Part shown: piece by piece, positions 1,542 through 25,165 of the stretch
Layout of the letters: every line of letters begins with the position of its first letter
How positions within the stretch are numbered: position 1 is the stretch's first letter
From: Holophaga sp.
GTDB taxonomy: Bacteria; Acidobacteriota; Holophagae; Holophagales; Holophagaceae
NCBI GenBank assembly: GCA_049508835.1
Contig: JBELAL010000004.1
Location: forward strand, 129,420 to 161,419
DNA: 32,000 bases
Direction of reading: 5' to 3'
Notes under the pieces: model-generated
Told to the model about the DNA's origin: nothing
Database searches by the model: none
Seen by the model: the letters and a program-made list of their open reading frames with translations, nothing else
Made by a program: the position numbers and the translations under genes

Positions 1542-1574
1542 AAACGACCCGGATGCGGGGTCGCACCCGGGTCG
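1542..1574 (-). terminator. Putative intrinsic terminator after the decaheme cytochrome gene
   Basis: The minus-sense RNA forms GACCCGGGUGCG-ACCC-CGCAUCCGGGUC, a 12-bp stem with one G.U pair. It is followed by GUUUUG and lies about 55 nt downstream of the TAA stop at 1630-1632. The U-tract is short. Confidence 0.4.
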
Positions 1575-1629
1575 CTGCTTCAGGTCCTGCAAGCGTCCGG
1601 GACGGAATCGCTTCCGCCCGGTCGGGACA

Positions 1630-4515
1630 TTAGAAGTTCATGTGAACGACATCGATGTCGGCCACGCCGCCGGACCCGTGGCACACCAGGCACTGCTCGT
1701 TGGAAGCCAGCACGATGGGGCTGGGAGCGGTGGTGGGCGTGGTGAAGGAGCCGTTGGCGTTCTTGACCGGGACGCTGCCGCGCTGGACATACCACGTGCC
1801 GCCGTTGGCGGTCATGTGGCTCACGGCCGCCGCGCTGTCGTGGCAGGCGCCGCAGGCCGAGGTGATCGGCGAAGTCACTGCGCTCAGGGCGTAATTGGCC
1901 GGCTGGGCGGTGACCCAGGCAGCGGTGGCCGGGGCCGGAGCAACGAAGGACTGGGTCGCGCCGTAGTTGCCGCTGGGGGTGACCCAGGGGGAATTGCCGG
2001 TGGCGGCCAAGGTGCCGGAGGCGACGGTCGGCCACAGCATGCCGGAGATCTGCCCGGCGTTGGTGCTGTTGCTGAAATCGTAGGAGCCGGGCACGTGGCA
2101 GGCTTCGCAGTCGTTCAGGATGCCGGGGTAGAGGATGCCCGGGAAGTTGGACTGCGCGGTGTAGGCGTTGCTGCGGAAACCGCCCGCATGGAGCGCGTGC
2201 ACCCAGGTCTTGGCGTCGTAGGTCCAGCCGCCGGTGGTGCCGGTGGCGTAGTGGCAGAAGACGCAGGCCGAGCCGTCGTTGAACTCGTTGCCGTGGAAGG
2301 ACGGGATGGCGCTGGTGCCGTTGGTGGTGAAGTTGCCCAGGTTCTCGTGGCAGGTGTTGCAGCTGCTGGGGTCGATGATGGAGCGCCGGGCGATCAGCTT
2401 GACGCCGTTGGCCGTGCCGGTGACGCTGGCCCAGGTGGTCTGGGCGGGCAGCAGGAGGCCGCCGGTGCCCTGGCTGCCGTTGCCGCTCGCGGTGGTCGCC
2501 TTGTTCCAGACGAAGTTCGGAGCGGTGGTGCCGTAGGCGCTGTTGGGACGGTTGGACAGGTGGGTGTCGGCGGTCAGGCTGGCCTGGACGACGCCGGAGA
2601 AGCCGATGCCGAGGGCGACCAGCTGGGTGCCGGGGGGCACCTGGATGCCGTCCATGACGATCTGGTAAGTGCCGGGGGCGCCAGGCATCTGGATGCCCTG
2701 GGAAGCGACCAGCACGCCCGACTTGGTGGTCGCGGTCTTGTTCCAGATGTACCTGAGGTTCCAGGAAGCACTGTCATTGTGACCGTAGTTGAAGTCGGTG
2801 GGCGTGATGCCGTCCTGGGGGATGCCCATGGCCAGCGCGATGTTCGGGCCTTGGGCGAACCCGGTGGGCATGGCTTCCGTGGTGGGATCGGTGGTGCCGG
2901 GCACGAACGGATTGAGGATGGCCGGAGTCCCGTTGATCAGGATCTGGAACTTCAGGACCGGGTTGTTGGTGGAGGTCATCGCGGCGGACAAGATGTTGTA
3001 GCTGACCGTGGCAGCGCCGGCGGGCAGGTTGGCCGGGCTGGTGGCCTGCCAGTTGTTGGTGGCGAGGCTGCCGTGCGCAGCAACGTTGGTGGCGTTCTCG
3101 GCCGGGCTCATCAGGGGCGTGTGGTAGACCTGGATGTCCTGGGCGGAGTGGCAGGTGGCGCACTGGCTGTCGTCGGTCACGACGCCGCCGACGTGGTTGG
3201 TGCCGGTGGTGATGAAGTCGACGTTGTCGTGGCAGCCGCCGCAGGCTGCGCGGCTGGGCACGGTCTGCCAGTTGCCGGCCTGGGGCGCGGCAGCGTTGGT
3301 GACGTGGCAGGCGCCGCAATTGGCGGTGTTCTGCGGGAAGTTGATGGAGTACTCGCCGGCGACACCGGAGGCCGCGGAGGCGTTGGAGGTGTTGTCCGGC
3401 GTGATGTCGTGGCCAGCCATCAGGAGGTTGGAACCCTGGTGGATCTGGTGGATCAGCTCGTCGAAGGTGAACTCGGCGGTTCCGTTGACCTGGGCGACGC
3501 TGCTGGTGAAGGTGCCGGTCACGTTGTTGTTCGCGGCGGTGTAGGTCCTGGTGGCCTCGGTGGCGCCGTACCTGCGCTGATCGGTGTGGCAGATCGTGCA
3601 GTTCTTGGGGTCGGTCCGGTGGCCGCCGTGGTAGGCCAGCTCGGTGTGGCATTTGTCGCAGGTGGACAGCAGGACGATCTCGCGGCTGTTGGCCGAGGGA
3701 GTCACGACCGCGCCGGTGGCCGGGACGAAATCGTAGCTGATGTTGATGGGATGCTGGATCTCAGCGTTGGACGGGCCGTTGGAGCCGTCCGGGGTGTTGG
3801 CGTGGCTGCCGACGCCGTAGCCGCGGGCGTTGCCGAAGAACTCGATGACGACGCGGGTGGGGGCGCTGGCGTCGAACGCCAGGTTGGTGGGATCCAGGCC
3901 ACTCACGTCCTTGCTGTTGGCCGTTCCGTACGCGGTCACGGCCGACGCCACCTTGGTGATGTCAGTCATGAAGGTGTAGGTGTAGGTGCCGTCGCCGTGA
4001 CCGACCAGGGTGCCGTTGCCGTCCGTGGTGGGACCGGTGGGAACCGAAGTGGGGCTCTTCTGGGTGGGCGTGGTCATGCATACGTAGTTGACCCACTTGC
4101 TCGGGGCCCCGGCAACGGGGGCGCTGGGCAGCCCGCCTTGCGGGATCAGCTTGGCGATGGTGAAGGTCAGGTTGGGATAGCTGGCGGTCAGGTCGCTGCT
4201 CGGGCTCAGCTTGGTGAAGGTGTCGAGCCCCGCGATGGGCATCTGGACGCCGCCGACATTGCCGGTGATCTTGAAGTTCACTACCGGCTTGCCCTGGGTC
4301 GAGCTGACGGTGACGCCGCTGATGGTGCCCACGGGATTGAGGGCGATCCACTGGGCCGAGGTCAGGTTGGCCGCGTTGACGGCGCCGTTGGTGTTGGGGG
4401 CGCTGGTGCCGGCTGGTCCGGCTGGTCCGGTCGAGCCGTTGCACCCGACCAGGATGGCGACGGTTATCGCGCCTGCGAGCAGGGCGCAAAACCGGGTGGT
4501 GGGATGAGGTGACAT
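1630..4515 (-). CDS. Decaheme c-type cytochrome lipoprotein, MtrC/OmcA-like architecture (961 aa)
   Basis: The signal peptide plus lipobox is ...AITVAILVGC(25)NGS. There are ten CXXCH motifs: CDKCH, CTICH, CGACH, CGGCH, CATCH, then CNTCH, CVFCH, CEACH, CGACH, CLVCH. They form two pentaheme blocks separated by a heme-free stretch of about 262 aa, after a heme-free N-terminal domain of about 260 aa. An AAGGAG RBS lies upstream of the ATG at 4515. Confidence 0.9.
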   Translation of the reverse strand: MSPHPTTRFCALLAGAITVAILVGCNGSTGPAGPAGTSAPNTNGAVNAANLTSAQWIALNPVGTISGVTVSSTQGKPVVNFKITGNVGGVQMPIAGLDTFTKLSPSSDLTASYPNLTFTIAKLIPQGGLPSAPVAGAPSKWVNYVCMTTPTQKSPTSVPTGPTTDGNGTLVGHGDGTYTYTFMTDITKVASAVTAYGTANSKDVSGLDPTNLAFDASAPTRVVIEFFGNARGYGVGSHANTPDGSNGPSNAEIQHPINISYDFVPATGAVVTPSANSREIVLLSTCDKCHTELAYHGGHRTDPKNCTICHTDQRRYGATEATRTYTAANNNVTGTFTSSVAQVNGTAEFTFDELIHQIHQGSNLLMAGHDITPDNTSNASAASGVAGEYSINFPQNTANCGACHVTNAAAPQAGNWQTVPSRAACGGCHDNVDFITTGTNHVGGVVTDDSQCATCHSAQDIQVYHTPLMSPAENATNVAAHGSLATNNWQATSPANLPAGAATVSYNILSAAMTSTNNPVLKFQILINGTPAILNPFVPGTTDPTTEAMPTGFAQGPNIALAMGIPQDGITPTDFNYGHNDSASWNLRYIWNKTATTKSGVLVASQGIQMPGAPGTYQIVMDGIQVPPGTQLVALGIGFSGVVQASLTADTHLSNRPNSAYGTTAPNFVWNKATTASGNGSQGTGGLLLPAQTTWASVTGTANGVKLIARRSIIDPSSCNTCHENLGNFTTNGTSAIPSFHGNEFNDGSACVFCHYATGTTGGWTYDAKTWVHALHAGGFRSNAYTAQSNFPGILYPGILNDCEACHVPGSYDFSNSTNAGQISGMLWPTVASGTLAATGNSPWVTPSGNYGATQSFVAPAPATAAWVTAQPANYALSAVTSPITSACGACHDSAAAVSHMTANGGTWYVQRGSVPVKNANGSFTTPTTAPSPIVLASNEQCLVCHGSGGVADIDVVHMNF

Positions 4516-4688
4516 TCTGGCGGTCTCCTTAGAGGTGAGGGTTGAGGTATGACGGTTCAGGGTTGCAATCGGTGGAAGCGACTGGATGGATGGCTCACCT
4601 CCTGCTGCAGAGTTGAATGGTTTTCAGGTCAAGATCTCTTTGAACCGGGAAGGGGGGTCCGCCGAAGCGGATCCGCCCGCACGGGCTT

Positions 4689-5342
4689 CTAGTTGTTGCT
4701 GGTCGGAGTCAGCTCGCCGTGGCACATGGTGTTGTTGGTGCACCCCGGCGCCGTGCCGGCGGGCGCGGGATTGGCCGGCCTGAGGGTGGAATTGGCCCCG
4801 CCGGCGTGGCACTGGTAGCAGACCGGGGCATTGCTCAGGTTCGTGATCGCATGGTTGATGAGGGGATCCGTCGGCCTAGTCCAGTCCGCCGCCGCCGGGT
4901 GCGGCGCCCCGGGGTGGCAGGCGTAGCAGGAGATGGCCGGGCCGTCGGCGAAGTCCGTGTTGTGGCAGGTGGTGCAGTAGGCCATGCCGGAGGTGGGACC
5001 GGCGACCGCCATGGCGCCCTGAAGCCCGTGCTGGTCGCCGTCCTGCCAGTTGGCGGGGTGCGCCGGGCCGTTGGGATGGTGGCAGCCGAAGCAGCTCACC
5101 TTGGAGATCCCGCCCGCCTGGGTGGGATCCGTGTAGGACCCGTGGCAGGTCGTGCAGTAGGCGGGGTTCTGGTAGAACGTGTTGGGGTGGGTCGTCACCC
5201 AATCCGCAGGATGCTGGCCCGTCGCGCTCAGTGTCGGCGCCTGGCTGGTTCCGCCAGAGCACCCCAGGAAGAGTGCGGCGATGGCCACCGCGATGCCGGT
5301 TCCGACCCTCAGGCTGGCTCTGCTCATCATGTTCCCCTTCAT
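4689..5342 (-). CDS. Multiheme c-type cytochrome lipoprotein (5 CXXCH plus one atypical CX5CH), 217 aa
   Basis: The lipobox is ALFLGC-SGG. CXXCH motifs are CTTCH, CFGCH, CTTCH, CYACH and CYQCH, plus a C-terminal CTNNTMCH. The start may be one of the internal ATGs at 5330 or 5327 (MMSRAS...), which have a better GGGGA RBS. Confidence 0.85.
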   Translation of the reverse strand: MKGNMMSRASLRVGTGIAVAIAALFLGCSGGTSQAPTLSATGQHPADWVTTHPNTFYQNPAYCTTCHGSYTDPTQAGGISKVSCFGCHHPNGPAHPANWQDGDQHGLQGAMAVAGPTSGMAYCTTCHNTDFADGPAISCYACHPGAPHPAAADWTRPTDPLINHAITNLSNAPVCYQCHAGGANSTLRPANPAPAGTAPGCTNNTMCHGELTPTSNN

Positions 5343-5356
5343 CTTTCAATCCGAAG

Positions 5357-5830
5357 CTATTTGTGGCAGAGGAGGCACTTCTCGTTGTCGGCCCGGCCGT
5401 GGCACTTGAAGCAGCTGGTCGGATCCGCCTGGGCGTCGAACTTGTGCAGGACCAGGTAGTTCCCCCGGTGCGGCATGTCCCGGTCGGGACGGTCCCCGAG
5501 CTTCACGTCGGGCCGCATCATCACCTTGCCGCTGTGGCAGTCGGCGCAGAAGGCGGTGGAATGGCAGACGGCGCACACGTTGGAGTCCCGGCCCGCCGCG
5601 AAACGGTGGTCCCTGATGAACTCGGGCGTGTGGTCGAAGGCGGAATAGGGCTTGGCCGCGCCGGCCAGGGTCCCGTCCGCGTGGCAGGTGGTGCACTGCG
5701 GCCGGCCGGGGCCCAGTTCCTGGGGATGGGTGGGAGCGAAGCTGGAGGCGGGGGCGATGGGATTGCAGGCGATCGTCAGCCCAAGGCCGAAGGCCACGGC
5801 CAGGACGAGAAGAAGGGCTTTACGGATCAT
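5357..5830 (-). CDS. Small pentaheme c-type cytochrome (157 aa), probably periplasmic or lipid-anchored
   Basis: The signal sequence is MIRKALLLVLAVAFGLGLTIAC. There are five CXXCH motifs (CTTCH, CAVCH, CADCH, CFKCH, CLLCH) in about 135 mature residues. The start ATG overlaps the stop of the upstream barrel gene (ATGA at 5827-5830). Confidence 0.85.
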   Translation of the reverse strand: MIRKALLLVLAVAFGLGLTIACNPIAPASSFAPTHPQELGPGRPQCTTCHADGTLAGAAKPYSAFDHTPEFIRDHRFAAGRDSNVCAVCHSTAFCADCHSGKVMMRPDVKLGDRPDRDMPHRGNYLVLHKFDAQADPTSCFKCHGRADNEKCLLCHK

Positions 5831-7233
5831 TTACTGCCTCCCTTGCTGGCGATGCTGAAGCGGTAGGTGGTGCGCAGCAGCACGCTGACTTGGTTCTTGT
5901 AGTAGGCGTCCAGGGCGTAGGTCAGGTCGCCGGACACGGAGAGGTTGGCGGTGGGGTTCATGCCCACGGAACCCACCACCTGGGTGATGGTCGACTTGCT
6001 GTAGAGGTTGGGGTTTGAGCTGTCGTCGAACTGGTAGAAGATCCCGTCCAGGCTGGCGTGGAAGCTCTTGCCCTGATACATGACCCAGGCGCGGTACTCT
6101 TCCCTGGACATGCCGAAGAGGGCCGGCGCGAAGGAGTAGGGGATGGCGGTCGGCATCAGCAGGTCGGGGGAGCTGACCTTGTGGAACCCGCCCCCGGCCT
6201 GGTACTTCGACTCGGGCACGGCCCAGCGCACGTCCGCGCCGTAGCGGGTGGTGGTCCCGTAGGTCTCGCGGTCGGTCTGGCGGTAGTCCAGGATCACCTG
6301 GACGGCGTCGGCGGGCCCCAGGGCCAGGGTGCCGCCCTTGGCCTTGATCTTGTCCGGGGTGTCCAGATGGAACAGGTCGGGCAGGTTGGTGCCGGCGAAG
6401 TACGCTTCGAGGTTGCGCTCCACGTAGTTCACGGTGAGGGTGGCCACCGGCGAGAACTTGTAGCTGGCGGCGTAGTCCTCTTCAGCCACTCGGGACGGGC
6501 TCTGGCCCGGCGTGCCGGGGGCCTGGTAGTGGCTGGCCACGTCGAACAGGGTGTGTCCGGTGATCTCCAGCCTGGCCACGGGCGCCAGGCGGAGGTCGGT
6601 GCCCACCTGCTTCCGGGTGAAGTCCACCGGGGGCGGGGTCGCTATGTCCTCCACCTTGGTGGTCCCGTCCTGGAGGTAGGAGACGCCCACCTCGCCCACG
6701 GTCCCCAGGCGGTAGCCCAGGCGGGAGCCGAAGATGACGTCGGTCTGGTACTTGTAGTCGTAGTTGGTGCCCGGCCGCAGTTCCTGGGTCTTGTAGTGGA
6801 CCGGGGTCCCGAAGAAGGCGGAGAGGTTGAAGCCGCCCCTGAGGTCGGTGCGGGCGCTGACCCCGTCGACCTGTTCCACCCCCGCGCCCTGGTTGACGGC
6901 GAACCGGCCCGCCTTGAGCTCCGCGTTGGCCTGGCCGAAACGGTAGTCCAGGTAGGCGTAGCTGAGGTCGCCGGCGGACTTGCCGAAGGGCAGGCTCTGG
7001 TCCCCGAGATCCATGGCCCCCCAGCCGTACAAGTGCAGAGACAACGCATCCGACCCCAGGTGGGTGCCATCGATGCCCAGGAATTCCGTCCCCGGCGCGA
7101 TGGTCTGGTTGAACCCCGGGACGTCCTGCTTGCCGTACTGGAGCATGGTGGTGCTGAAACCGCTGAATTCCTGGGCCCACGCACCGGTTGATGCCAGGGT
7201 GACTAGCAGGACCACACGGTTGCGTTGTTTCAT
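5827..7233 (-). CDS. Porin-like outer-membrane beta-barrel protein (468 aa from ATG 7233)
   Basis: The signal peptide is MKQRNRVVLLVTLASTGAWA-QEF. The sequence has an alternating hydrophobic/aromatic pattern throughout, is Tyr/Gly/Thr/Asp rich, has no Cys and no heme motifs, and carries the terminal strand ...LLRTTYRF near the C-terminus. The ATG at 7233 has a GAGGAG RBS. The track start at 7251 is a GTG lying within that RBS, so I prefer 7233. Confidence 0.8.
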   Translation of the reverse strand: MKQRNRVVLLVTLASTGAWAQEFSGFSTTMLQYGKQDVPGFNQTIAPGTEFLGIDGTHLGSDALSLHLYGWGAMDLGDQSLPFGKSAGDLSYAYLDYRFGQANAELKAGRFAVNQGAGVEQVDGVSARTDLRGGFNLSAFFGTPVHYKTQELRPGTNYDYKYQTDVIFGSRLGYRLGTVGEVGVSYLQDGTTKVEDIATPPPVDFTRKQVGTDLRLAPVARLEITGHTLFDVASHYQAPGTPGQSPSRVAEEDYAASYKFSPVATLTVNYVERNLEAYFAGTNLPDLFHLDTPDKIKAKGGTLALGPADAVQVILDYRQTDRETYGTTTRYGADVRWAVPESKYQAGGGFHKVSSPDLLMPTAIPYSFAPALFGMSREEYRAWVMYQGKSFHASLDGIFYQFDDSSNPNLYSKSTITQVVGSVGMNPTANLSVSGDLTYALDAYYKNQVSVLLRTTYRFSIASKGGSK

Positions 7234-7265
7234 GGTTCTTCTCCTCTGCACAGGCCAAGGCGCAA

Positions 7266-7292
7266 AGCCGGTCCAAACCTGCTGGACCGGCT
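7266..7292 (-). other. Perfect 10-bp stem hairpin or palindrome in the leader of the barrel-cytochrome operon
   Basis: AGCCGGTCCA-aacctgc-TGGACCGGCT (7266-7292), about 33 nt upstream of the ATG at 7233. Confidence 0.4.
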
Positions 7293-7337
7293 GGAAATCT
7301 GGGGGTGCTGCTGGATTTGAAATAATCAGGTGTCTGG

Positions 7338-7365
7338 ATTTTGAACCAAATTAAGGATACGTCAA
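7338..7365 (-). promoter_or_regulatory. Candidate sigma70-like promoter of the barrel-cytochrome operon
   Basis: The minus strand reads TTGACG (complement of 7360-7365), then 16 nt, then CAAAAT (complement of 7338-7343). The -10 element overlaps one of the CTGGATTT repeats. Pattern match only. Confidence 0.25.
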
Positions 7366-7988
7366 TCTTTTATCTGGTTTCCCCGATATGATTTCGGACA
7401 CAAGTTCCCGATAGGCACTGTGTTCCGGGCACGCCTCCAGCCCTCGAGGCCAGCCGCCCCGGGGGCCCGCTCATCGGGGCTACCGGCTCGACCCGCCTCC
7501 CCTGGGGCCTGTCCGATCACGGTTCTCCAAAGATCAAGTCCCGACATTGGACTGCTGAAACTATAAAGATTAATATTTCCAGCGGTTGACCGTTTGTGCC
7601 CATGTCAAGGGGCGCGAGCCCCGGGAGCTGGGGCACAGTCTCCAGACGACTAGGTATCTTGAATGTACAAAGGGTCGGGTACGTCTGCAAGAAAAGATTA
7701 AACTTGACTTCATTACTCAACAATAAGTCATGTTACAGGAACTTGTCTGGTTATATGGATATACCTTCTGGACACCGATCCCGGTGAAATGAGAAACCAT
7801 GATCCTAAAAATGAAAAAACGGCATATTCCAGAAATCCAATGATCCGTGCAGCAAGCCTGGATTTCAATAAAATATAAAAATACAATAAATTCAGGCTCC
7901 CAAGGGCGGAATAACCCGATGGTTTTGTATTAATTCTTAGGAGTAAAAAATGATTGCTATAACAAGATGTCCCCAGGCCCCGACCCGG

Positions 7989-8580: not shown

Positions 8581-9867
8581 ATGCTTGAGAAGCCTTTCAA
8601 CCCGTTCACCATGGCCCAGATGCAGTTCGACACCGTGGCCGAGAAGCTGGGCCTGGACCCGGGCACCCGGGACCTGCTGCGCAACCCGTCCCGGGAGCTG
8701 CACTTCACCATCCCGGTGCGGATGGACGACGGGAGCACCCGGGTGTTCCGCGGGTTCCGGGTGCAGCACAGCGACGCCCGGGGCCCCGCCAAGGGCGGGG
8801 TCCGCTTCCACCCCCAGGAGACCATCGACACGGTGCGGGCGCTGGCCACCTGGATGACCTGGAAGACGGCGGTGGTGGACATCCCCCTGGGCGGGGGCAA
8901 GGGCGGGGTGATCTGCGACCCCCGGGAGCTTTCCGACCGCGAGCAGGAGCAGATCTGCCGCGGCTGGGTCCGCCAGGCGTCCAGGCTGGTGGGCCCCCTG
9001 CGGGACGTGCCGGCGCCGGACGTCATGACCCACGGCCAGCACATGCTCTGGATGCTGGACGAGTACGAGGCGATCCACGGAGGCCGCTACCCCGGCTTCA
9101 TCACCGGCAAGCCCGTGGGCATGGGCGGCTCCCTGGGCCGCACCGAGGCCACCGGCTACGGCGTCGTCTACACCGTGCGGGAGGCCATGAAGGAGCTGGG
9201 CATCCCCATCGAGGGCGCCACCGCGGCCATCCAGGGGGCCGGCAACGTGGCCCAGTACGCGCTGGACCAGTTCACGCGGTACGGGGGCAAGGTCATCGCC
9301 GTCTCCTGCTGGGACAACGACGACAAGGTCCCGTACACCTACCGCTGTCCCGACGGGATCGGGTTCGCCTCCCTCCAGGCCGCCATCGACAAGTACGGCA
9401 CCATCGCCCCGGACAAGGCCCGGGCCTGCGGCTGGGAGCGGCTGGACGGCGGCGCCTGGCTGGAGCAGGAAGCGACCGTCCTCATCCCCGCGGCCCAGGA
9501 GAACATGATCAACGCCGACAATGTGCACCAGATCAGGCCTTCGGTCCGGGTCATCGCCGAAGGGGCCAACGGCCCCACCACCCCCGAGGCGGACGCGGTC
9601 ATCCAGCGACAGGGCATCTCCCTGGTCCCGGACTTCCTGTGCAACGCCGGGGGCGTGACCTGCTCGTACTTCGAGCAGGTGCAAAGCAACATGAACTACT
9701 ACTGGGAGAAGGAAGAGGTGCTCACCAAGCTGGACCAGAAGATGACGGCGGGGTTCAAGGCCGTCTCCGCGCTGGCCCGGGACCGGGGCGTCCACATGCG
9801 GGATGCGGCCTACATGATCTCCATCAAGCGGGTGGCCGAGGCGTGCCACCTGCGGGGCTGGGTCTGA
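8581..9867 (+). CDS. gdh: Glutamate dehydrogenase (Glu/Leu/Phe/Val dehydrogenase family, about 428-aa short type)
   Basis: From ATG 8581 (AGGAG RBS at about 8571): MLEKPFNPFTMAQMQFD...FRGFRVQHSDARGPAKGGVRFHP...WMTWKTAVVDIPLGGGKGGV. The dinucleotide-binding motif is IQGAGNVA. The upstream part of track ORF 8410 is Arg/Gly-rich and I rejected it. Confidence 0.9.
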   Translation: MLEKPFNPFTMAQMQFDTVAEKLGLDPGTRDLLRNPSRELHFTIPVRMDDGSTRVFRGFRVQHSDARGPAKGGVRFHPQETIDTVRALATWMTWKTAVVDIPLGGGKGGVICDPRELSDREQEQICRGWVRQASRLVGPLRDVPAPDVMTHGQHMLWMLDEYEAIHGGRYPGFITGKPVGMGGSLGRTEATGYGVVYTVREAMKELGIPIEGATAAIQGAGNVAQYALDQFTRYGGKVIAVSCWDNDDKVPYTYRCPDGIGFASLQAAIDKYGTIAPDKARACGWERLDGGAWLEQEATVLIPAAQENMINADNVHQIRPSVRVIAEGANGPTTPEADAVIQRQGISLVPDFLCNAGGVTCSYFEQVQSNMNYYWEKEEVLTKLDQKMTAGFKAVSALARDRGVHMRDAAYMISIKRVAEACHLRGWV

Positions 9868-12599
9868 TGGCCTCCACCTTCGGCGATTCGCGCGAGCTGC
9901 GCACCATCGTCGAGATCGCCGCGATCCTCGCCCGGGAGGATCTCTCCATCCCCCAGATCCTCCAGGCGGTGGCAGAGACGCTGCCCCACGGGTTCAAGTA
10001 CGAGGAGGTGTGCCAGGCGCGCATCCACTTCTGGGGGGAATGCTTCGAGACCCGGGGCTTCACGCCCGGGCCCTGGACCCTGCGGGCGCCCATCCCGGTC
10101 CGGGGCGACACCCTGGGGGAAGTGGAGGTGGTCTACCTGGAGAACCGTTCCTCCCGCGCTCCGGCCAGCCCGTTCCACCTGGACCAGAAGAAGCTGGTTG
10201 ACCTCACCGCCCAGAAGCTGGGGCACCTGGCCGAGGAACGCCTGGCCCGGCGCGACGGTGGGCCCCGGCCGCCGCCGCCGGCGCCCGAGCGCAAGCCCGA
10301 GTGGCGGGCCATCCTGGACCTGCTGGGGGACATCGACCCGCCCATGCACCACCGGCTCATCCGCAGGCTCATGAACCACGCCACCAAGCTGGGGGTGCCC
10401 GGGGTGCAGAAGATGATCGCGCGGCTCGACCCAGCGCTCTACGCCCAGGGCGAGGCCTCCACCCACGGGTCCAACGCCCCGCTGCCCAAGCAGGACCTGG
10501 AAACCCTGCGCAAGACCTTCGTCGACATCCAGGATGTGGCCTCCGTGGTGTTCCCGGACGCCGACCTCGCCAGCCTGCTCAAGCAGTGGATGCGCCAGGA
10601 CCGGCTGGGCTACCTCGCCGTCGCCACCGAGAAGCGCGACATCCCCCTGGTGGAGGTCACCGAACTGGTGGACCGGTTCTGCCGGGAGACCTCCGGGGCG
10701 GACCTGACCGGCCTGTCCCTGCCGGACGACCAGAACGTGCGGGTGGCCCTGATCCGCCGTTTCCTCACCGAAAGCCTGAAGTTCATCGGCATCGCCAAGA
10801 ACCACCTCGCCATCGCCGACTTCCGCTCGATCCTGGCCCGGGTGGCCGGCCCGGCCCAGGGCAACGGCAAGCTGGGGGGCAAGGCGGCCGGGCTGATCCT
10901 GGCCCAGCGCATCCTGGAGCGGCGGGGCCGGGGCGATCCGCTCATCGAGGCGGTCCGCACCCCCCGGACCTGGCACATCACCTCCGACGGCATCTGGAAC
11001 TTCCTCCGCCACAACAGCCTGGAGGACCTCTGGAGCCTGAAGTTCTCCCCCCTGGAGGAGGTGCGCCAGGCTTTCCCGTACCTGGAGCAGGTGTTCAAGA
11101 ACTCCTTCTTCTCGCCGGAGATGCAGCAGCAGATCCAGTTCATCCTGGACGACCTGGGCGACGGGCCGATCATCGTGCGCTCCTCCAGCCTGCTGGAGGA
11201 CACCGAGGGCATGGCCTTCTCCGGCAAGTACCGCAGCCTGTTCCTGGCCAACACCGGCTCCCGGGAGGACCGCCTGGAGGCGCTCCTGGATGCGGTGGCC
11301 GAGGTCTACGCCTCGGTGTTCGGGCCGGATCCCATCGGCTACCGGGCCGAGCGGGGCCTGCTGGATTTCGTGGAGGAGATGGGCATCATCATCCAGAAGG
11401 TGGTTGGGCGGCAGGTGGGGCGGTACTTCTTCCCCGCCTTCGCGGGGGTGGCGTTCAGCCACAACGAGTTCCGCTGGTCGTCCCGCCTGCGGCGGGAGGA
11501 CGGCATCGTCCGCATGGTGACCGGGCTGGGCACCCGGGCCGTGGACCGCGTGGGCCGCGACTTCCCGTTCATGTTCAGCCCCGGCCAGCCCAGCCTGCGG
11601 GTCAACGTCACCCCCGAGCAGGTGCGGCACTATGCCCAGAACGCCATGGACGTCATCGACCTGGAGAGCGGGCGGTTCGAGAGCCTGGAGGTGGCGGAGG
11701 TGCTGAAGCGGGCCGGAGACGCCTTCCCCATGCTGGAGCAGGTGGTCTCGGTGCTGGAGGACGGCATCCTGAAGAAGCCCCTCAAGGGCATGCTCCGGCC
11801 CGGAGAGGACGACCTGCTGGTGACCTTCTCGGGGCTGCTGGAGCGCACCCCGTTCGTGGCCCAGGTGCGCGCCATGCTGGCCATCCTCCAGGACGAGCTG
11901 AGCCTGGCGGTGGACCTGGAGTTCGCCCACGACGGGGAGCACCTGTACCTGCTCCAGTGCCGGCCCCAGAGCCGCCTGGCCGACGAAGGCCGCCCGGCCA
12001 TGCCCAGCAAGCTGGAATTCGGCCACAAGCTGTTTTCCGCCAGCAAGTACGTCACCAACGGGCGGGTCGGGGACATCCGCTACGTGGTCTACGTGGATCC
12101 GGAGGAGTACCGGCGGATCCCGGACCTGGCCGACCTGCTGGCCATCGCCGACTGCGTGGCCCGCCTCAACCAGGCCCTGCCCCGGCGCAGGTTCATCCTC
12201 ATGGGGCCCGGCCGCTGGGGCAGCCGGGGCGACCCCACCCTCGGGGTGGGGATAACTTATTCAGGAATCAACAACACCGCCCTGCTGGTGGAGATCGCCC
12301 GGAAAAGGGGGGGCTTCGTGCCGGACCTCTCCTTCGGGACCCATTTCTTCCAGGACCTGGTGGAGGCGCAGATCCACTACCTGGCCCTGTACCCCGACGA
12401 AGAAGGCAACCTGTTCAATGAAGGCTTCTTCCGGGACAGCCCGAACAGCCTGGGCGGACTGCTGCCGGAGCACGCCCGCCTGGAGCGGGCGGTGCGGGTC
12501 ATCGACGTGGAGCAGGTGTTCCCCGGGTGCGACCTCAACGTGGTCATGGACGCGGAGACGGACCGGGCCCTGGGCTACATCCGGGAGCGCCGCCCTTGA
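9867..12599 (+). CDS. GAF-like sensor plus PEP/pyruvate-binding (PPDK_N ATP-grasp) domain protein with an unusual C-terminal GPGRWGS/GTHFF module (910 aa)
   Basis: The ATG at 9867 overlaps the gdh stop (TGATG, 9865-9869). The N-terminus (IVEIAAILAREDLSIPQILQAV...GEVEVVYLE) is GAF-like. The core carries GNGKLGGKAAGL, IIVRSSSLLEDTEGMAFSGKYRSLF and EFAHDGEHLYLLQCRPQS, which are the hallmark motifs of the nucleotide-binding domain of PEP synthase and PPDK. I saw no canonical GG.TSHAA phosphohistidine motif and no PEP-utilizer TIM-barrel motif. Confidence 0.85.
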   Translation: MASTFGDSRELRTIVEIAAILAREDLSIPQILQAVAETLPHGFKYEEVCQARIHFWGECFETRGFTPGPWTLRAPIPVRGDTLGEVEVVYLENRSSRAPASPFHLDQKKLVDLTAQKLGHLAEERLARRDGGPRPPPPAPERKPEWRAILDLLGDIDPPMHHRLIRRLMNHATKLGVPGVQKMIARLDPALYAQGEASTHGSNAPLPKQDLETLRKTFVDIQDVASVVFPDADLASLLKQWMRQDRLGYLAVATEKRDIPLVEVTELVDRFCRETSGADLTGLSLPDDQNVRVALIRRFLTESLKFIGIAKNHLAIADFRSILARVAGPAQGNGKLGGKAAGLILAQRILERRGRGDPLIEAVRTPRTWHITSDGIWNFLRHNSLEDLWSLKFSPLEEVRQAFPYLEQVFKNSFFSPEMQQQIQFILDDLGDGPIIVRSSSLLEDTEGMAFSGKYRSLFLANTGSREDRLEALLDAVAEVYASVFGPDPIGYRAERGLLDFVEEMGIIIQKVVGRQVGRYFFPAFAGVAFSHNEFRWSSRLRREDGIVRMVTGLGTRAVDRVGRDFPFMFSPGQPSLRVNVTPEQVRHYAQNAMDVIDLESGRFESLEVAEVLKRAGDAFPMLEQVVSVLEDGILKKPLKGMLRPGEDDLLVTFSGLLERTPFVAQVRAMLAILQDELSLAVDLEFAHDGEHLYLLQCRPQSRLADEGRPAMPSKLEFGHKLFSASKYVTNGRVGDIRYVVYVDPEEYRRIPDLADLLAIADCVARLNQALPRRRFILMGPGRWGSRGDPTLGVGITYSGINNTALLVEIARKRGGFVPDLSFGTHFFQDLVEAQIHYLALYPDEEGNLFNEGFFRDSPNSLGGLLPEHARLERAVRVIDVEQVFPGCDLNVVMDAETDRALGYIRERRP

Positions 12600-12888
12600 G
12601 AATCCCAAGCCCCGGGTCAGGAAGTTCAAGCTCATCAATTAGGTAGGACGGACCCGTTGCCGGCGGTCTGTGCAGGCGGCCCCGGAAAGGCGCTGGCTGT
12701 GCAACAAGTCACGACTTACCTCGGCATCCCCTTGTTTGATGTATGCCCCGTTAGAATCCTTCATGCAAGAGTTGTCGCAGCATTTGGGCCGGGGATGACC
12801 ATGGATCGGGCGCTCGGCTTTTTCGAATAATTCATCCGCCCGCTCGGCGGTCTTTAGTGCATCTACCCAATCTCCCTCCGGAGGCATC

Positions 12889-14238
<1,350 letters not shown>

Positions 14239-14260
14239 CGTCGGGTTCCAGCGTTTCGGC

Positions 14261-14292
14261 AAGGAGGGGCCTTCGGGTCCCTCCTTCGTTTT
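14261..14292 (+). terminator. Rho-independent terminator after gdhA
   Basis: AAGGAGGGGCC-UUCG-GGUCCCUCCUU forms an 11-bp stem with one G.U pair and a UUCG tetraloop. It is followed by CGUUUU and starts 23 nt after the gdhA stop. Confidence 0.6.
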
Positions 14293-14442
14293 GGGGGAGC
14301 GCCCGTAACGCCGCGGCTAGGCCCGTGTCCCGTCCTTCCGCGCCGACCCACACCAGGTCCCCCGGAATGGGACGGCGCGAAGGGAGGTACGACGGGCGAT
14401 TCAAGTATGGCTAGACTGGATGCTCCACCGGAGGACGGGGTC

Positions 14443-17400
14443 ATGATCAGCCGAGAGATTCAGGAGATCTTCCGGAAGTACCGGTCGGACAAGGAGATAT
14501 TCCATAGCCTGATGCCGCTGCGGACCCGGGAGATTTTGCTGGTGGCGCCGGTGTACGATGCGTTCACCCTGGAGCAGGATGGGCTGCTCACGGAGCTGCT
14601 GTTCGAGAGCTACTACCAGCTCAACATGAGCAACCCGCCCCGGGTGACCAACTGCTCCACGGCCGAGGCGGCCCTGGAGCAGTTCGCCATCCGCCCGTTC
14701 GACCTGGTGATCGTCATGAGCCGCCTGGGCCAGGCGGGCCACGTGGAGCTGGCGCGGCAGCTGCGGGCGGCCAACGCCAAGGTGCCCATCTACCTCCTGC
14801 TCAACGACAACGTGGAGGTGGGGATCATGGACCGGCGCCGGCAGGAGTTCCTGCGCCACTACGACCAGATCTTCGTGTGGAACGGCAACCCGGACATCTT
14901 CATGGCCATGGTCAAGTACCTGGAGGACCGGGCCAACGTGCGCAACGACACGCGCATCGGCCTGACCCGGGTGATCCTCCTGGTGGAGGACAGCATCCGC
15001 TACTACTCCCGCTACCTGCCCATCCTGTACGGGGAGATCCTGAAGCAGACCCTGCGCCTGGCCAAGGAGCGCGCCATCGGCGGCATGGCCCGCAGCCTGG
15101 CCATGCGGGTGCGGCCCAAGGTGATCCTGGTGTCCACCTTTGAAGAGGCGATGAGCTTCGTCCAGGAGTACCGGGACTACCTGCTGTGCGTCATCTCCGA
15201 CCGCAAGTTCCCCAAGGACGGGATGGTGGACCGGGAAGCCGGCATCAAGCTGATCCAGGCGGTCAAGGCCATGAGCCCCGACCTGCCGACCATGCTCCAG
15301 TCCTCGGACCCTGACAAGGAGGCCTGGGCCACGGCCCTGAACAGCTGCTTCCTGAACAAGAACTCCTTCACCCTCGGGGCGGAGCTCTCCAGCTTCTTCT
15401 ACCAGTACCTGGGCTTCGGGGACTTCATCTTCCGCGACCAGGCCGGCGGGGAGATCGCCCGGGCGGTGCGCATGGAGGACCTGAATGAGAAGCTCCAGAC
15501 CGTGCCCCTGGAGTCCCTGCTCTACCACGCCTCCCGCAACCACTTCTCGGCCTGGCTGATGGCCCGGGGCGAGGTGGAGATCGCCCAGGTGGTGCTGCGG
15601 GTCAAGCCGTCGGACTTCGCCGACCTGGAGGAACTGCGCACCTTCCTCATCAACATGGGCGACTACATCCAGCGCCTGAAGTCCCGGGGCAGGGTGATGC
15701 CCTTCAGCGCCGCCTCCGCCCAGGAGGAGCACAATGTGCTGCGGCTCACCGAGGGCGCCTTGGGGGGGAAGGCCCGGGGGGTGGCCTTCATCAATTCCCT
15801 GCTGGTGGGCCTGGACCTGGAGCAGCTGTTCCCCGAGGCCAACGTCCGCATCCCGCGCAGCTTCGTCATCGGCACGGACGAGTACGCCGCCTTCATGGAG
15901 CGCAACGGGATGCGCGCCCTGCTCCAGGGCGAGGAGGACGACAACGCCATCAAGCGCCGGTTCCTGATGGGCAGCCTCTCCCCGGACCTGGCCCGGAAGC
16001 TGGAGGCCTTCCTCCGCCAGGCCCGCTACCCCCTGGCCGTGCGTTCCTCGGGGCTCCTGGAAGACAGCCTGTCCCACCCCTTCGCCGGGCTGTACGCGAC
16101 CTTCTTCCTGCCCAACAACCACCCCGAGCCGGACGTGCGCGCCGCCCAGCTCACCGAGGCCATCAAGCTGGTCTACGCCTCGGTGTACGCCAAGGAGTCC
16201 CGCTCCTACTTCCAGGCCATCGACTACAAGGTGGAGGAGGAGCAGATGGCCATCCTCATCCAGGAGGTGGCGGGGCACCGGTTCGGGGACCACTTCTACC
16301 CGCACATCGCCGGGGTGGCCCAGTCCTTCAACTACTACCCGGTGGCCTACACCCGGCCCCAGGATGGCATCGCCAACATCGCGGTGGGCCTTGGCAGCTA
16401 CGTGGTGGGCGGAGGCCGGGCCTTCCGGTTCACCCCCCCCTACCCCCGGATGGACATCCTGAACCCCAGGGAGCAGCTGCGCAACACCCAGAAGTTCTTC
16501 TGCGCCCTGGACATGAGCCGGAACACCGTGGACCTGTTCAACGGCGAGGACGCCACCCTGCTAAACCTGGACATCAAGGAGGCGGAGCGGGCCGGCGCGC
16601 TGGCCCATTGCGCCTCGGTCTGGGACGCCAACGACGAGCGCATCCAGGACAGCCTGGACTGGCCCGGGGCGCGGATCGTGAACTTCCGCGACGTGCTCAA
16701 GTACGACTGCTTCCCCCTGGCGGGGATCCTGGACAAGCTGCTGGAGCTGATCCGCGACGCCATGGAGACCCCGGTGGAGGTCGAGTTCGCGGTGAACCTG
16801 GACCCGGACCCGGTCAACGGCAAGCCCACCTTCTTCCTCCTGCAGATCAAGCACCAGCTCCTGGATTCGGCGGAAGTGAACCTGTCCCCGGAGGACCTTG
16901 ATCCCGGGTCCCTGTTCCTGTTCTCGGAGAAGTGCGTGGGCAACGGGGTCGTGGAGGGCCTGCGGGACATCGTCTGGATCGACCCCGAGAACTTCAACCT
17001 GTTCAACACCGTCGACCTGGCGGCGCGGGTGGAGCGCCTGAACGACCAGTTCCGGGCCGAGGGCGGCAAGTACCTCCTCATCGGCCCCGGGCGCTGGGGC
17101 AGCAACGACGTCCACCTGGGGATCCCCATCGGCTGGGCCATGATCTCCTGCGCCCAGGCGATCGTGGAATACGCCACCGAGGCCTTCCAGGTGGACGCCT
17201 CCCTGGGCTCCCACTTCTTCCACAACGTCACTTCGCTCAACATCGGCTACTTCACCATCCCCTACCCCCGGGGAAACAGCGTCCTGGACTTCGACTGGCT
17301 GCGGGCGCAGCCCCTGGTCCGCCGCGACGGGTGCCTGGTGCACAGCCGGGTGGAGGCGCCCATCCACATCGTCATGGACGGCCGCCGCAGCGCCTCGGCG

Positions 17401-17460
17401 GTGTTCAAGCAGGCGCCGGCCGCCAGGCCCGCCGAGCCGGAGCCGGACGGCCACAGCTGA
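14443..17460 (+). CDS. Tandem receiver-domain plus PEP/pyruvate-binding (PPDK_N ATP-grasp) protein, paralog of 9867-12599 (about 1005 aa; the longest ORF starts at 14407)
   Basis: I prefer the ATG at 14443 because a GGAGGA RBS lies 7 nt upstream. The track start at 14407 has no well-spaced RBS. There are two receiver-like segments (REILLVAPVYD...FDLVIVMSRL and RVILLVEDSIRYY...LLCVISDRKFPKDG...LPTMLQSSD). The core carries GGKARGVAF, LAVRSSGLLEDSLSHPFAGLYATFF and FFLLQIKHQ. The C-terminus carries LLIGPGRWGSND...LGSHFFHNV, matching the C-terminus of the 910-aa paralog. Confidence 0.85.
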   Translation: MISREIQEIFRKYRSDKEIFHSLMPLRTREILLVAPVYDAFTLEQDGLLTELLFESYYQLNMSNPPRVTNCSTAEAALEQFAIRPFDLVIVMSRLGQAGHVELARQLRAANAKVPIYLLLNDNVEVGIMDRRRQEFLRHYDQIFVWNGNPDIFMAMVKYLEDRANVRNDTRIGLTRVILLVEDSIRYYSRYLPILYGEILKQTLRLAKERAIGGMARSLAMRVRPKVILVSTFEEAMSFVQEYRDYLLCVISDRKFPKDGMVDREAGIKLIQAVKAMSPDLPTMLQSSDPDKEAWATALNSCFLNKNSFTLGAELSSFFYQYLGFGDFIFRDQAGGEIARAVRMEDLNEKLQTVPLESLLYHASRNHFSAWLMARGEVEIAQVVLRVKPSDFADLEELRTFLINMGDYIQRLKSRGRVMPFSAASAQEEHNVLRLTEGALGGKARGVAFINSLLVGLDLEQLFPEANVRIPRSFVIGTDEYAAFMERNGMRALLQGEEDDNAIKRRFLMGSLSPDLARKLEAFLRQARYPLAVRSSGLLEDSLSHPFAGLYATFFLPNNHPEPDVRAAQLTEAIKLVYASVYAKESRSYFQAIDYKVEEEQMAILIQEVAGHRFGDHFYPHIAGVAQSFNYYPVAYTRPQDGIANIAVGLGSYVVGGGRAFRFTPPYPRMDILNPREQLRNTQKFFCALDMSRNTVDLFNGEDATLLNLDIKEAERAGALAHCASVWDANDERIQDSLDWPGARIVNFRDVLKYDCFPLAGILDKLLELIRDAMETPVEVEFAVNLDPDPVNGKPTFFLLQIKHQLLDSAEVNLSPEDLDPGSLFLFSEKCVGNGVVEGLRDIVWIDPENFNLFNTVDLAARVERLNDQFRAEGGKYLLIGPGRWGSNDVHLGIPIGWAMISCAQAIVEYATEAFQVDASLGSHFFHNVTSLNIGYFTIPYPRGNSVLDFDWLRAQPLVRRDGCLVHSRVEAPIHIVMDGRRSASAVFKQAPAARPAEPEPDGHS

Positions 17461-24016: not shown

Positions 24017-25165
24017 TCAGGGCTCGGTGCCTTCCGAGAGAACATTGAGCACTCGTTCATAGGAAAACAGGCGATTCCGCAGGCCGCCGGTAATTTCCTT
24101 CAGGAGACCGAGTTTAACCAAATGATCCAAGGCCTTGTTGGCAGTGGCAGGAGTCAGTCCCTCGGACTTGCAGATCGCGGCGGAGGAACTGATCGGATGA
24201 CCCTGGAGGTAGTGAAGCACCTGAACCACGGAAGCCGCCAATTTTGCCCCTTGGATGATCTTCCGGTCCTCCGTGAACAAGGCGAGCAGTCTCTTGGCCG
24301 TAGCCACGGCACCATCGGATGTCTCGGCTACTCCCTGGAAAAAGAAATCCAGCCATGATTCCCAATCACCCTCCAGCCGGACCTTTTGGAGGAGTTCGTA
24401 ATAGGTGGCACGATGTGCTTTCAAGAACAGGCTGAGGTACAGCATCGGGTCCTTCAGAACGCCCTCGTTGCTCAGGATCAATGTAATCAAAAGACGACCG
24501 ACCCGGCCGTTGCCATCCAGGAAGGGGTGCATGGTTTCGAACTGGACGTGGGCAAGGGCCGCCTTGGTCAAGGCATCCATATCACTATGCAGAAATGTTT
24601 CCCACGCACTTAGGCATTCCGGCAGAGCCTCGTGGGGGGGTGGCACGAAGGCGGCATTGCCGGGACGGCTTCCTCCGATCCAATTCTGGCTGCGCCTGAA
24701 CTCGCCCGGCTGCTTGATACTGCCTCTGCCCCGGGAGAGCAGCACCTGATGTATTTCGCGGACCAGACGAAGACAGAGCGGAAAGCCGCCATGCAGACGC
24801 TTGAGGCCATGTGTCAAGGCAGTCACATAGTTGGATACCTCCACCACATCGTCCATGGGCGCCCCTGGAGCTTGGGCGTTCTCGAACGCCAGCAAGTCCG
24901 AGAGGGAAGACTGGGGGCCTTCGATCTGGGATGACAGCACCGCTTCCTTGCGCACGTAGCTGTACAGAAACAGAGCGGGTTCTGGCAATAGGGCGGTCAC
25001 CCCATCCAGTCGGCCAACCGCCGTAGCGGCTCGCTGCTGGGCCCTGAACAGAGGTGGCGTCCACTGTACAGGTGGTGCAGGCGGGAGCGGTGCGGGTACG
25101 AAAGCTTGGACAGACTCGCCTTGGGTGGTCTGCGTCACGAACGTGCCGGTGGAAGCTCGCAGCAT
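24017..25165 (-). CDS. Fic family protein (class II; N-terminal inhibitory motif, C-terminal winged-helix-like tail)
   Basis: From ATG 25165 it is 382 aa. The Fic core motif is HPFLDGNGRVGRLL. The inhibitory-helix motif SSQIEG ([ST]xxxE[GN]) lies N-terminal to the core. The G+C content is visibly lower than in neighbouring genes. The track extension to 25252 runs through an AT-rich palindrome and I rejected it. Confidence 0.9.
   Translation of the reverse strand: MLRASTGTFVTQTTQGESVQAFVPAPLPPAPPVQWTPPLFRAQQRAATAVGRLDGVTALLPEPALFLYSYVRKEAVLSSQIEGPQSSLSDLLAFENAQAPGAPMDDVVEVSNYVTALTHGLKRLHGGFPLCLRLVREIHQVLLSRGRGSIKQPGEFRRSQNWIGGSRPGNAAFVPPPHEALPECLSAWETFLHSDMDALTKAALAHVQFETMHPFLDGNGRVGRLLITLILSNEGVLKDPMLYLSLFLKAHRATYYELLQKVRLEGDWESWLDFFFQGVAETSDGAVATAKRLLALFTEDRKIIQGAKLAASVVQVLHYLQGHPISSSAAICKSEGLTPATANKALDHLVKLGLLKEITGGLRNRLFSYERVLNVLSEGTEP

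Follow-up and report, generated by a model that had tools for sequence, protein, structure and literature searches.

Recurrent linkage of glutamate dehydrogenase genes to sensor-fused ATP-grasp proteins suggests candidate signal-gated regulators with a new C-terminal domain

Introduction

Glutamate dehydrogenase (GDH) links the metabolism of carbon with that of nitrogen at a central junction, and its control in bacteria is usually described as transcriptional or allosteric. Here, we describe a locus in a 32,000-nucleotide stretch of Holophaga sp. DNA (hereafter 'the window'), in which two different GDH genes, gdh1 and gdh2, are each followed by a gene for a large protein, L1 and L2, respectively. 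Both large proteins contain a PPDK_N ATP-grasp domain, the nucleotide-binding domain of dikinases, joined to putative sensor domains. We find that relatives of L1, and to a lesser extent of L2, are encoded beside gdh genes in many bacterial lineages, which strongly supports, at the level of gene neighbourhoods, a functional link between the L proteins and GDH.

The closest described enzymes are phosphoenolpyruvate (PEP) synthase (PEPS; EC 2.7.9.2) and pyruvate phosphate dikinase (PPDK; EC 2.7.9.1), which have an N-terminal PPDK_N ATP-grasp and share the GGK, RSS..ED, F[SA]G and E...Q.RP motifs with L1 and L2. Unlike these enzymes, L1 and L2 have neither a swivel domain nor a PEP-utilizers_C barrel, score more than tenfold below the equivalog cut-offs, carry additional sensor domains and a C-terminal domain (CTD) that is new, and have genes dedicated to the neighbourhood of gdh. 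Among solved structures and NCBIfam models, the L1/L2 ATP-grasp is best matched by rifampin phosphotransferase (RPH; Listeria, 5hv6/5fbs) and PigC/RedH-type enzymes. As in L1 and L2, the ATP-grasp of RPH is followed by a C-terminal domain with a single histidine; the essential His825 of RPH has His826 of L1 as its counterpart. However, the C-terminus of RPH is a PF00391 swivel domain, to which the CTD of L1 and L2 has no sequence or Foldseek similarity; moreover, L1 and L2 lack the RIF-binding-type substrate domain, and their context is regulatory rather than that of antibiotic or pigment metabolism.

AceK with isocitrate dehydrogenase, and GlnE with glutamine synthetase, offer a functional analogy, each being a dedicated ATP-using modifier that acts on, or is encoded beside, one branch-point enzyme and switches flux there. 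They have no sequence or fold relationship to the L proteins, for which modification of GDH is hypothetical, and the putative writer (L) and eraser (a metallophosphoesterase, Metallophos) would be separate proteins rather than one bifunctional enzyme. In EI-Ntr (PtsP), an N-terminal GAF sensor gates a phosphohistidine enzyme in nitrogen regulation, and the PtsP GAF domain (3ci6) is among the fold matches of the L1 N-terminus, but a weak one (E 0.7); PtsP differs in using PEP, in having a canonical swivel domain and barrel but no ATP-grasp, and in targeting NPr rather than GDH. Post-translational or protein–protein control at the same metabolic node is exemplified by the FHA proteins GarA and OdhI, by Thermus GdhA/GdhB with an APRT homolog, and by B. 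subtilis RocG–GltC. To our knowledge, no known GDH regulator, these included, has a PPDK_N ATP-grasp, a receiver-fused enzyme or the CTD, and none of them is a phylum-spanning conserved operon partner of gdh. Full-text literature searches found no description of the protein family, of DUF5752 or of the gdh link; the view of an earlier model-made note on this DNA (the first-pass annotation), that no such system had been described, thus holds for the searchable literature.

Results

Two GDH genes, each followed by a gene for a large ATP-grasp protein

The window is part of a 212-kb JGI metagenome contig, has a GC content of ~68%, and encodes proteins whose closest matches are in Holophaga, Mesoterricola and Geothrix. 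All four open reading frames (ORFs) of the first-pass annotation, for GDHs of 428 and 449 aa and large proteins of 910 and about 1005 aa, were confirmed; in JGI's own, independent annotation of the source contig, gdh1, L1, gdh2 and L2 have 438, 910, 449 and 1005 aa, respectively. The features of the locus are as follows.

8581..9867, forward strand: gdh1, 428-aa hexameric-type glutamate dehydrogenase; partner gene of L1
9867..12599, forward strand: L1, 910 aa; GAF/PAS-like domain, helical region, PPDK_N ATP-grasp and CTD
12889..14238, forward strand: gdh2, 449-aa GdhA-type NADP-specific glutamate dehydrogenase; partner gene of L2
14262..14287, forward strand: GC-rich hairpin followed by a U-rich tract, 3′ of gdh2; terminator- or attenuator-like
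14443..17460, forward strand: L2, 1005-aa response-regulator-type protein; degenerate receiver, canonical receiver, DUF5752-like segment, PPDK_N ATP-grasp and CTD

The start codon of L1 overlaps the stop codon of gdh1 (TGATG at 9865-9869). For L2, the conserved start is the ATG at 14443, since orthologs begin MISREIQ, and GGAGGA lies upstream; an alternative ATG is found at 14407. The hairpin at ~14262-14287 is followed by UUCGUUUU, and folding of the 62 nt at 14239-14300 yields -28.9 kcal/mol (z -2.6), in agreement with the first-pass annotation, although a simple terminator scan does not list it. Searches of the window gave no sigma-54 signal above chance, no sigma-70 promoter-like site, no Rfam family and no tRNA, and the two intergenic regions contain no repeats. 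The flanking genes are unrelated to the four-gene region; among them are rlmH, bacA and genes for an amidohydrolase and for Mtr-like multihaem cytochromes. A role of the region in anti-phage defence was considered and rejected, none of the four proteins having a match to PADLOC models.

The two enzymes belong to different GDH classes, as had been proposed: both carry the Pfam domains ELFV_dehydrog_N and ELFV_dehydrog (E 2e-53 and 7e-67 in gdh1), but they are only 33% identical. The product of gdh2 exceeds the cut-off of PRK09414, the NCBIfam equivalog for NADP-specific GDH (709 versus 536 bits). That of gdh1 has the Pyrococcus furiosus GDH 1gtm as its best PDB match (E 2e-121), falls below the cut-off of the archaeal GDH equivalog (459 versus 750), and has the glutamate-binding Lys/Ser contexts GPAKGGVRF and NAGGVTCS. 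It also has an 'EWD..' loop insertion after 'AVS' in common with the NAD-specific Peptoniphilus GDH 2yfq. This conserved loop was considered as a feature peculiar to L1-linked GDHs, but its presence in 2yfq makes it a marker of a GDH subclass and no evidence of docking. Overall, gdh1 is akin to the archaeal and Peptoniphilus enzymes, and is probably catabolic.

Relatives of L1 and L2 are encoded beside gdh genes across phyla

When GTDB species were scanned, each represented by a single genome, relatives of L1 turned up at no fewer than 585 loci. We analysed gene neighbourhoods for the best 80 of these, all full-length orthologs of 42-77% identity, which span at least ten phylum-level lineages, although taxonomy labels of metagenome-assembled genomes (MAGs) may be imprecise. 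The lineages include Acidobacteriota, Calditrichota, Ignavibacteria/Melioribacter, Bacteroidota, Cloacimonadota, Gemmatimonadota, Zixibacteria and Fibrobacteres, as well as MAGs labelled Planctomycetales, Myxococcales and others. By tblastn, a gdh1 ortholog (64-81% identity) lies upstream of the L1 ortholog in 60 of the 80 loci, in the following arrangements.

gdh1 directly adjacent to L1, same strand: 27/80 loci
gdh1 and L1 separated only by a short paralog of L1: 25/80 loci
other spacing: 5/80 loci
divergent orientation: 3/80 loci
gdh1 not found near L1: 20/80 loci

Of the 20 loci without gdh1, about 12 are cut off less than 1.6 kb upstream, so that linkage is seen in ~60 of 68 informative loci. 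By chance, on an estimate of one to three gdh genes among several thousand genes, we would expect less than ~0.2% per locus, i.e. well under one locus. With one exception, L035, the neighbours at the loci without gdh1 are unrelated (peptidase M48, MutS2, glycosyltransferase, FBPase).

For L2, we analysed 80 metagenome loci of 42-85% identity, which are not phylogenetically independent. A GdhA-type gene (57-91% identity) is present in 38 of these; in 37 it is no more than 3.5 kb away, and in 19 no more than 1 kb. The order of genes varies, with gdh on the same strand, divergent, convergent, or placed after a tandem L2 paralog. The neighbours of L2-type loci also include genes for the alpha and beta subunits of a 2-oxoacid:ferredoxin oxidoreductase in 21-26 loci and for an Asp/Glu racemase in 13 (for example, L145 3507-6409 and L155 649-1776). 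We found no other gene that is consistently linked across both the L1 and L2 locus sets.

The two gdh–L pairs also occur separately. In a close relative of Mesoterricola sediminis, gdh1 and L1 are found with rlmH and the amidohydrolase gene, without gdh2-L2 at the site, whereas cultured Geothrix oryzae has gdh2-L2 alone, with gdh2 directly upstream, at an unrelated genomic site. Since each pair occurs alone in relatives, what had been described as a duplicated cassette is better seen as two separate modules side by side, each GDH class having its own paralog; the pairs themselves are as described. Similarly, the TGATG overlap on which translational coupling of gdh1 and L1 had been proposed is real, but it is lineage-specific, as most orthologous pairs have intergenic gaps of ~60-260 bp. 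The inference of a functional link rather than chance fared better: gdh is enriched near homologs of both proteins, in 60/80 L1 loci and, within 3.5 kb, in 37/80 L2 loci. We conclude that a functional link between the L proteins and GDH is strongly supported by these neighbourhoods.

L1 and L2 share an ATP-grasp and a new C-terminal domain

L1 and L2, described earlier as paralogs, align over 577 aa with 29% identity; the alignment spans the ATP-grasp and the ~190-aa CTD. The family core of ~555 aa thus consists of a complete PPDK_N-type ATP-grasp followed by a 190-aa alpha/beta CTD. PPDK_N is the sole Pfam domain type common to the two proteins, and its assignment by the first-pass annotation, together with the motifs, was verified (Pfam E 6.6e-50 for L1 and 3.8e-34 for L2). 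The nucleotide-site motifs GGKxxG, VRSSxLLED, F[SA]GxY and (D/V)xEFA...LLQxxxQ are conserved in the L1 and L2 families, most of their residues being invariant, and those ATP-grasp motifs that can be aligned with rifampin phosphotransferase show little or no variation. Among solved structures, the L1-family profile matches Listeria RPH 5hv6/5fbs and Neisseria PEPS 2ols, over the ATP-grasp only.

The remainder of a dikinase is missing. Neither L1 nor L2 has a Pfam match to the PF00391 swivel domain or the PF02896 barrel, as expected from the earlier failure to see phosphohistidine or TIM-barrel motifs; the GGxTSH phosphohistidine motif is absent from the window, and after the CTD no residues are left for a TIM barrel. 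L1 and L2 score 25-52 bits against the NCBIfam equivalogs for PEPS (PEP_synth, PRK06464 and PRK06241; cut-offs 598-883), and 25-56 bits against those for RPH and PigC-type enzymes (cut-offs 999-1350). Because they lack the swivel domain and barrel and fail the equivalog scores, we regard L1 and L2 as a variant of the dikinase ATP-grasp kind rather than as members of these families. A split dikinase was also considered and rejected, since a canonical swivel-domain neighbour is encoded in only 1 of 160 loci (L084 1-1398, with GGATSHASV, directly upstream of an L2 ortholog).

The isolated CTDs have no Pfam match even at E <= 5. An AlphaFold2 (AF2) model of the CTD is alpha/beta, with a mean predicted local distance difference test (pLDDT) score of 92.7, and a Foldseek comparison of this model with the PDB gave no significant match (best E 0.1, TM <= 0.39). 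The CTD is therefore, by the available tests, not a diverged swivel domain; judged by sequence and predicted structure, it is a new domain, for which we found no Pfam or PDB relative. Invariant across both subfamilies are GPGRWG, two Asp, one Glu and S-x-G-x-H-F-F. The motifs, in the general forms GPGRWG[ST] and SxG[ST]HFF, are present in 145-148 of 149 representatives that share at most 50% identity, and the histidine motif in 148 of 149. This histidine, H826 in L1 and H924 in L2, is the only one invariant in both families, and lies at the start of a predicted helix.

Sensor domains differ between L1 and L2

Although L1 has more than 6300 homologs, the only fitting name among the matches listed is 'PEP/pyruvate-binding domain-containing protein', the others being PEPS, PPDK, dikinase or hypothetical; public names are generic or misleading, and some family proteins are called 'phosphoenolpyruvate synthase'. 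The domains of L1 are as follows.

9891..10253, forward strand: putative ligand-sensing domain at the N-terminus (aa 9-129), alpha/beta and weakly GAF/PAS-like
10299..10847, forward strand: all-helical linker (aa 145-327)
10869..11993, forward strand: PPDK_N-type ATP-grasp (aa 335-709; PF01326, E 6.6e-50)
12024..12596, forward strand: CTD (aa 720-910), new alpha/beta domain by sequence and model
12204-12224, 12330-12350 and 12342-12344: within the CTD, the GPGRWGS loop, SFGTHFF and the codon of the invariant His826, respectively

The ATP-grasp motifs of L1, checked at their coordinates, read GGKAAG, VRSSSLLED, FSGKY and DLEFA...LLQCRPQ. An AF2 model of aa 1-335 has a mean pLDDT of 82, with blocks above 90 across the aa 9-129 domain. 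The top Foldseek matches of this N-terminus are the PAS domain of DosP, the GAF domains of NifA and PtsP, fRMsr and CodY; these have a high 'prob' but are weak by other measures (E 0.03-2, TM 0.25-0.5). The 'GAF-like' label given earlier to the L1 N-terminus hence finds weak support at the level of fold, but none from Pfam, which has no match to this domain. The helical linker is highly conserved (KPEW, RRLMNH, GVPGV, NxPLPK, KQWxRQD and RFCR), and neither Pfam nor Foldseek found a known relative of it.

L2 has the following domains.

14524..14922, forward strand: first receiver-like domain, without the phospho-acceptor Asp (DLVIVMSRL)
14965..15378, forward strand: second, canonical receiver (E182/D183, D253 with codon 15199-15201, S287/S288 and K306)
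15460..15657, forward strand: DUF5752-like segment (aa 340-405)
15760..16857, forward strand: PPDK_N ATP-grasp (aa 440-805; E 3.8e-34)
16909..17457, forward strand: CTD, with GPGRWGS at 17083-17103, SLGSHFF, and the invariant His924 (codon 17212-17214)

Two receiver-like domains had been noted in this protein; both are present, but only the second has an acceptor Asp. The first, with a weak Response_reg match at aa 60-119, is probably a pseudo-receiver. In the second, the listed residues are invariant in the L2-family alignment, and hhalign places D57/T87/K109 of CheY on them. Response_reg is matched in 14/14 L2-family members scanned (best E 1.5e-12), while the Pfam score of the window L2 itself is below the gathering cut-off. 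DUF5752 (PF19027) scores 21.7-24.3 bits on L2 (cut-off 23) and is matched in 11/14 of the family members. The ATP-grasp motifs, also checked at their coordinates, are GGKARG, VRSSGLLED and LLQIKHQ.

A wider family and additional components of the gdh cassette

A profile of the CTD matches 1980 clusters at 50% identity among 1.84 billion representatives, 1345 of these at E <= 1e-10, and PPDK_N precedes the CTD in every full-length protein that we scanned with Pfam. The architectures comprise a sensor-less core of ~560 aa, a ~770-aa form, the L1 and L2 types, L1 with a C-terminal NTP_transf_2 domain, and single-chain fusions of the short form to L1. The sensor-less paralog (~560 aa; ATP-grasp and CTD only) is encoded between gdh1 and L1 in 25/80 genomes (for example, L022 8266-9927, L046 8267-9937 and L161 4266-6008), and is fused to L1 as one polypeptide of 1480-1640 aa in proteins P0241 and P0251. 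In P0247 (1059 aa; L161 6001-9180), an L1 variant carries the extra C-terminal NTP_transf_2 domain, a Pol-beta-type nucleotidyltransferase; this is the fold family of GlnE and GlnD, which act in nitrogen regulation. We scanned the eight longest or atypical architectures with Pfam, and all were short-L1 fusions or had extra N- or C-terminal domains; none contains a GDH domain.

A gene for a calcineurin-like metallophosphoesterase of ~285 aa, with 50-62% identity between phyla, accompanies 23/80 L1 loci, most of which also have the short paralog. As a rule, it follows L1 in convergent orientation; in Cloacimonadota, it is on the same strand, between L1 and gdhA. Loci bearing this gene are listed here.

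L019, L022, L027, L030, L040-L042, L044, L046, L052-L054
L057, L062, L066, L068, L071, L076, L078, L079, L123, L161

The cassette is most complete at the L161 locus, which has, in order, L2, gdh1, the short paralog, L1 with NTP_transf_2, and Metallophos. The first-pass annotation, limited to the window, had missed the short paralog and the metallophosphoesterase of related genomes, and its system was to that extent incomplete. A separate observation concerns the L2-type loci, many of which have two tandem L2 paralogs, ~45% and 37-40% identical to the L2 of the window, often bracketed by two GdhA-type genes (L090, L092, L095, L097, L100, L102-L106 and others).

Other features of the window

On the reverse strand, positions 2-7251 hold an extracellular-electron-transfer-type cluster, which encodes a ResB-like cytochrome c biogenesis protein and two smaller multihaem cytochromes, together with a 997-aa MtrC/MtrF-like multihaem cytochrome (1630-4623, reverse strand) and a 474-aa protein without a Pfam match that may be the porin of the cluster (5827-7251, reverse strand). 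Between this cluster and rlmH is an intergenic region of ~740 bp with an unusually low GC content (7252-7988; GC 0.52), in which the only ORF called (JGI) is of 29 aa, and no tRNA, Rfam family or repeats were found. A low-GC island at 24017-25252 (reverse strand; GC 0.58, compared with ~0.68-0.70 for the window) encodes a protein of ~380-411 aa with the Fic motif HPFLDGNGRVGR. By this motif, it likely belongs to the Fic/AMPylation family, and its composition suggests that it was probably acquired horizontally. A perfect 14-nt palindrome, CTTATTTTAGAAAA/TTTTCTAAAATAAG, lies at 25200-25233, near the predicted 5′ end of this gene.

Discussion

We propose, with a confidence that stops a little short of an even chance, that L1 and L2 are gated by signals and consume ATP to regulate the adjacent GDH, probably through covalent modification. 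In L1, the GAF/PAS-like and helical domains, presumably metabolite-binding, would switch the catalytic core; in L2, the canonical receiver, once phosphorylated by a histidine kinase, would turn the core on or off. By analogy with dikinases, the ATP-grasp would bind ATP and hand a phosphoryl group to the CTD histidine, His826 in L1 or His924 in L2, from which it would pass to the cognate GDH and alter its activity. In the fuller systems, the linked metallophosphoesterase would strip the modification. Separate switches on a catabolic-type GDH1 and an assimilatory NADP-GDH2 would then set glutamate breakdown against ammonium assimilation, and having two would avoid a futile cycle between the enzymes. 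We infer the enzymatic activity, the phosphohistidine step, the GDH protein as target and this physiological logic; a dikinase-like relay through the invariant CTD histidine would simply be the most economical chemistry. What favours a signalling enzyme that acts on GDH is the combination of signalling inputs, a reused core, pairing specific to GDH class, a linked phosphoesterase, and occasional fusions to a nucleotidyltransferase fold of the GlnE/GlnD type.

Several observations weigh against this proposal. The canonical phosphohistidine swivel domain is absent by both Pfam and Foldseek, so that dikinase chemistry cannot be assumed, and we know of no PPDK_N-family enzyme that modifies a protein. 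The GAF assignment of the L1 N-terminus is weak (E >= 0.03). No histidine kinase gene adjoins L2 in the window, nor does the window contain a metallophosphoesterase gene, and among the eight atypical architectures there is no GDH-L fusion. The linkage of L2 to gdh is weaker than that of L1, with variable gene order. Finally, two sets of neighbours would fit a shared metabolite equally well: the 2-oxoacid:ferredoxin oxidoreductase genes near some L2 loci, and, at L035 (7371-9721), genes for an Fe-S protein and a glutamate-synthase conserved-region protein, which lie directly upstream of L1 in place of gdh1.

These neighbours bear on the alternative that we take most seriously, although we consider it unlikely: that L1, L2 and the short paralog are metabolic enzymes, either an 'X, water dikinase' or an ATP-grasp ligase, whose substrate is a small molecule of the glutamate/2-oxoglutarate node, with GDH supplying or removing this substrate and the sensors tuning flux. 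In its favour, PPDK_N enzymes are known to act on small molecules or, in some cases, glucans (pyruvate, rifampicin, prodigiosin precursors, phenol), and same-node genes recur near some loci, the Asp/Glu racemase among them. However, L1 and L2 have no recognisable substrate domain or PEP-utilizer barrel, and we found no consistent linkage to a further pathway gene. Nor would each GDH class need a paralog of its own if a metabolite were shared, and three paralogs with one core and different inputs, receiver or GAF-like, are typical of signalling outputs rather than of pathway enzymes. Less probable again, by a small step, is a role that leaves GDH unmodified, either as a non-covalent partner (an allosteric or scaffold subunit that senses ATP/AMP and a second signal) or as the synthase of a nucleotide-derived messenger that GDH senses and the metallophosphoesterase degrades. 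Hetero-oligomers are suggested by the short-L1 fusions, and coupled expression by the start/stop overlap in the window, but the latter is not conserved, given the usual gaps of 60-260 bp. The messenger version gains from the NTP_transf_2 domain of some L1 variants and from the Metallophos linkage in 23/80 loci, since that family is known to include nucleotide phosphodiesterases; against it, there is no known precedent for messenger synthesis by a PPDK_N fold. The ATP-grasp and the CTD each hold invariant residues of a catalytic type, which argues for catalysis.

An ordinary or split PEPS/PPDK serving gluconeogenesis from amino acids, perhaps with its His-domain/barrel subunit encoded elsewhere, is very improbable and largely refuted by domain content. 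It would account for the database names that read 'phosphoenolpyruvate synthase', and split dikinases such as phenylphosphate synthase are generally known; L084 even has a GGxTSH swivel ORF upstream of its L2 ortholog. But such a neighbour is confined to this one of the 160 loci, scores are ~50 bits against cut-offs of 598-883 with neither PF00391 nor PF02896 matched, and PEPS and PPDK have nothing like the conserved sensor and CTD modules. Chance or purely historical juxtaposition, without functional coupling, has next to nothing left to recommend it. The adjacency of both pairs in the window is indeed lineage-specific, with a relative that lacks gdh2-L2 at the site, and a few L1 loci have unrelated neighbours. 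The neighbourhood counts nevertheless refute it: gdh1 is linked to L1 in three-quarters of the set, in many phyla and amid otherwise unrelated flanks, the linkage survives rearrangement (an inserted paralog, or divergent orientation in three loci), and L2 is linked in parallel to a different GDH class.

If L1 and L2 are indeed regulators of the adjacent GDH, they may be part of a larger scheme, which we put forward more tentatively than the proposal for the two proteins themselves: a phylum-spanning, post-translational control of GDH, in which up to three paralogous writers and a metallophosphoesterase eraser would switch the enzyme covalently in response to nitrogen and carbon signals. The writers, composed of a PPDK_N ATP-grasp and the CTD as a histidine-bearing carrier, would be receiver-gated, GAF-like-gated or sensor-less, each switching specific GDH isoenzymes. 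If true, such dikinase-like enzymes would form a new class that modifies proteins, and their carrier domain would be a phospho-carrier of new fold. The dikinase ATP-grasp family would then reach further than small-molecule substrates, and a new domain with an invariant histidine would be defined. Because cultured hosts exist (Geothrix oryzae and Mesoterricola), the hypothesis is directly testable. It would also add a regulatory layer, equipped with signalling inputs and a core whose ATP-using residues are intact, to GDH in a wide range of organisms, with L1 relatives in at least 585 species-level genomes and ~2000 clusters at 50% identity overall. The host lineages, including Acidobacteriota, Calditrichota, Ignavibacteriota, Cloacimonadota and Zixibacteria, dominate anoxic sediments, soils and digesters, and amino-acid catabolism is central in them.

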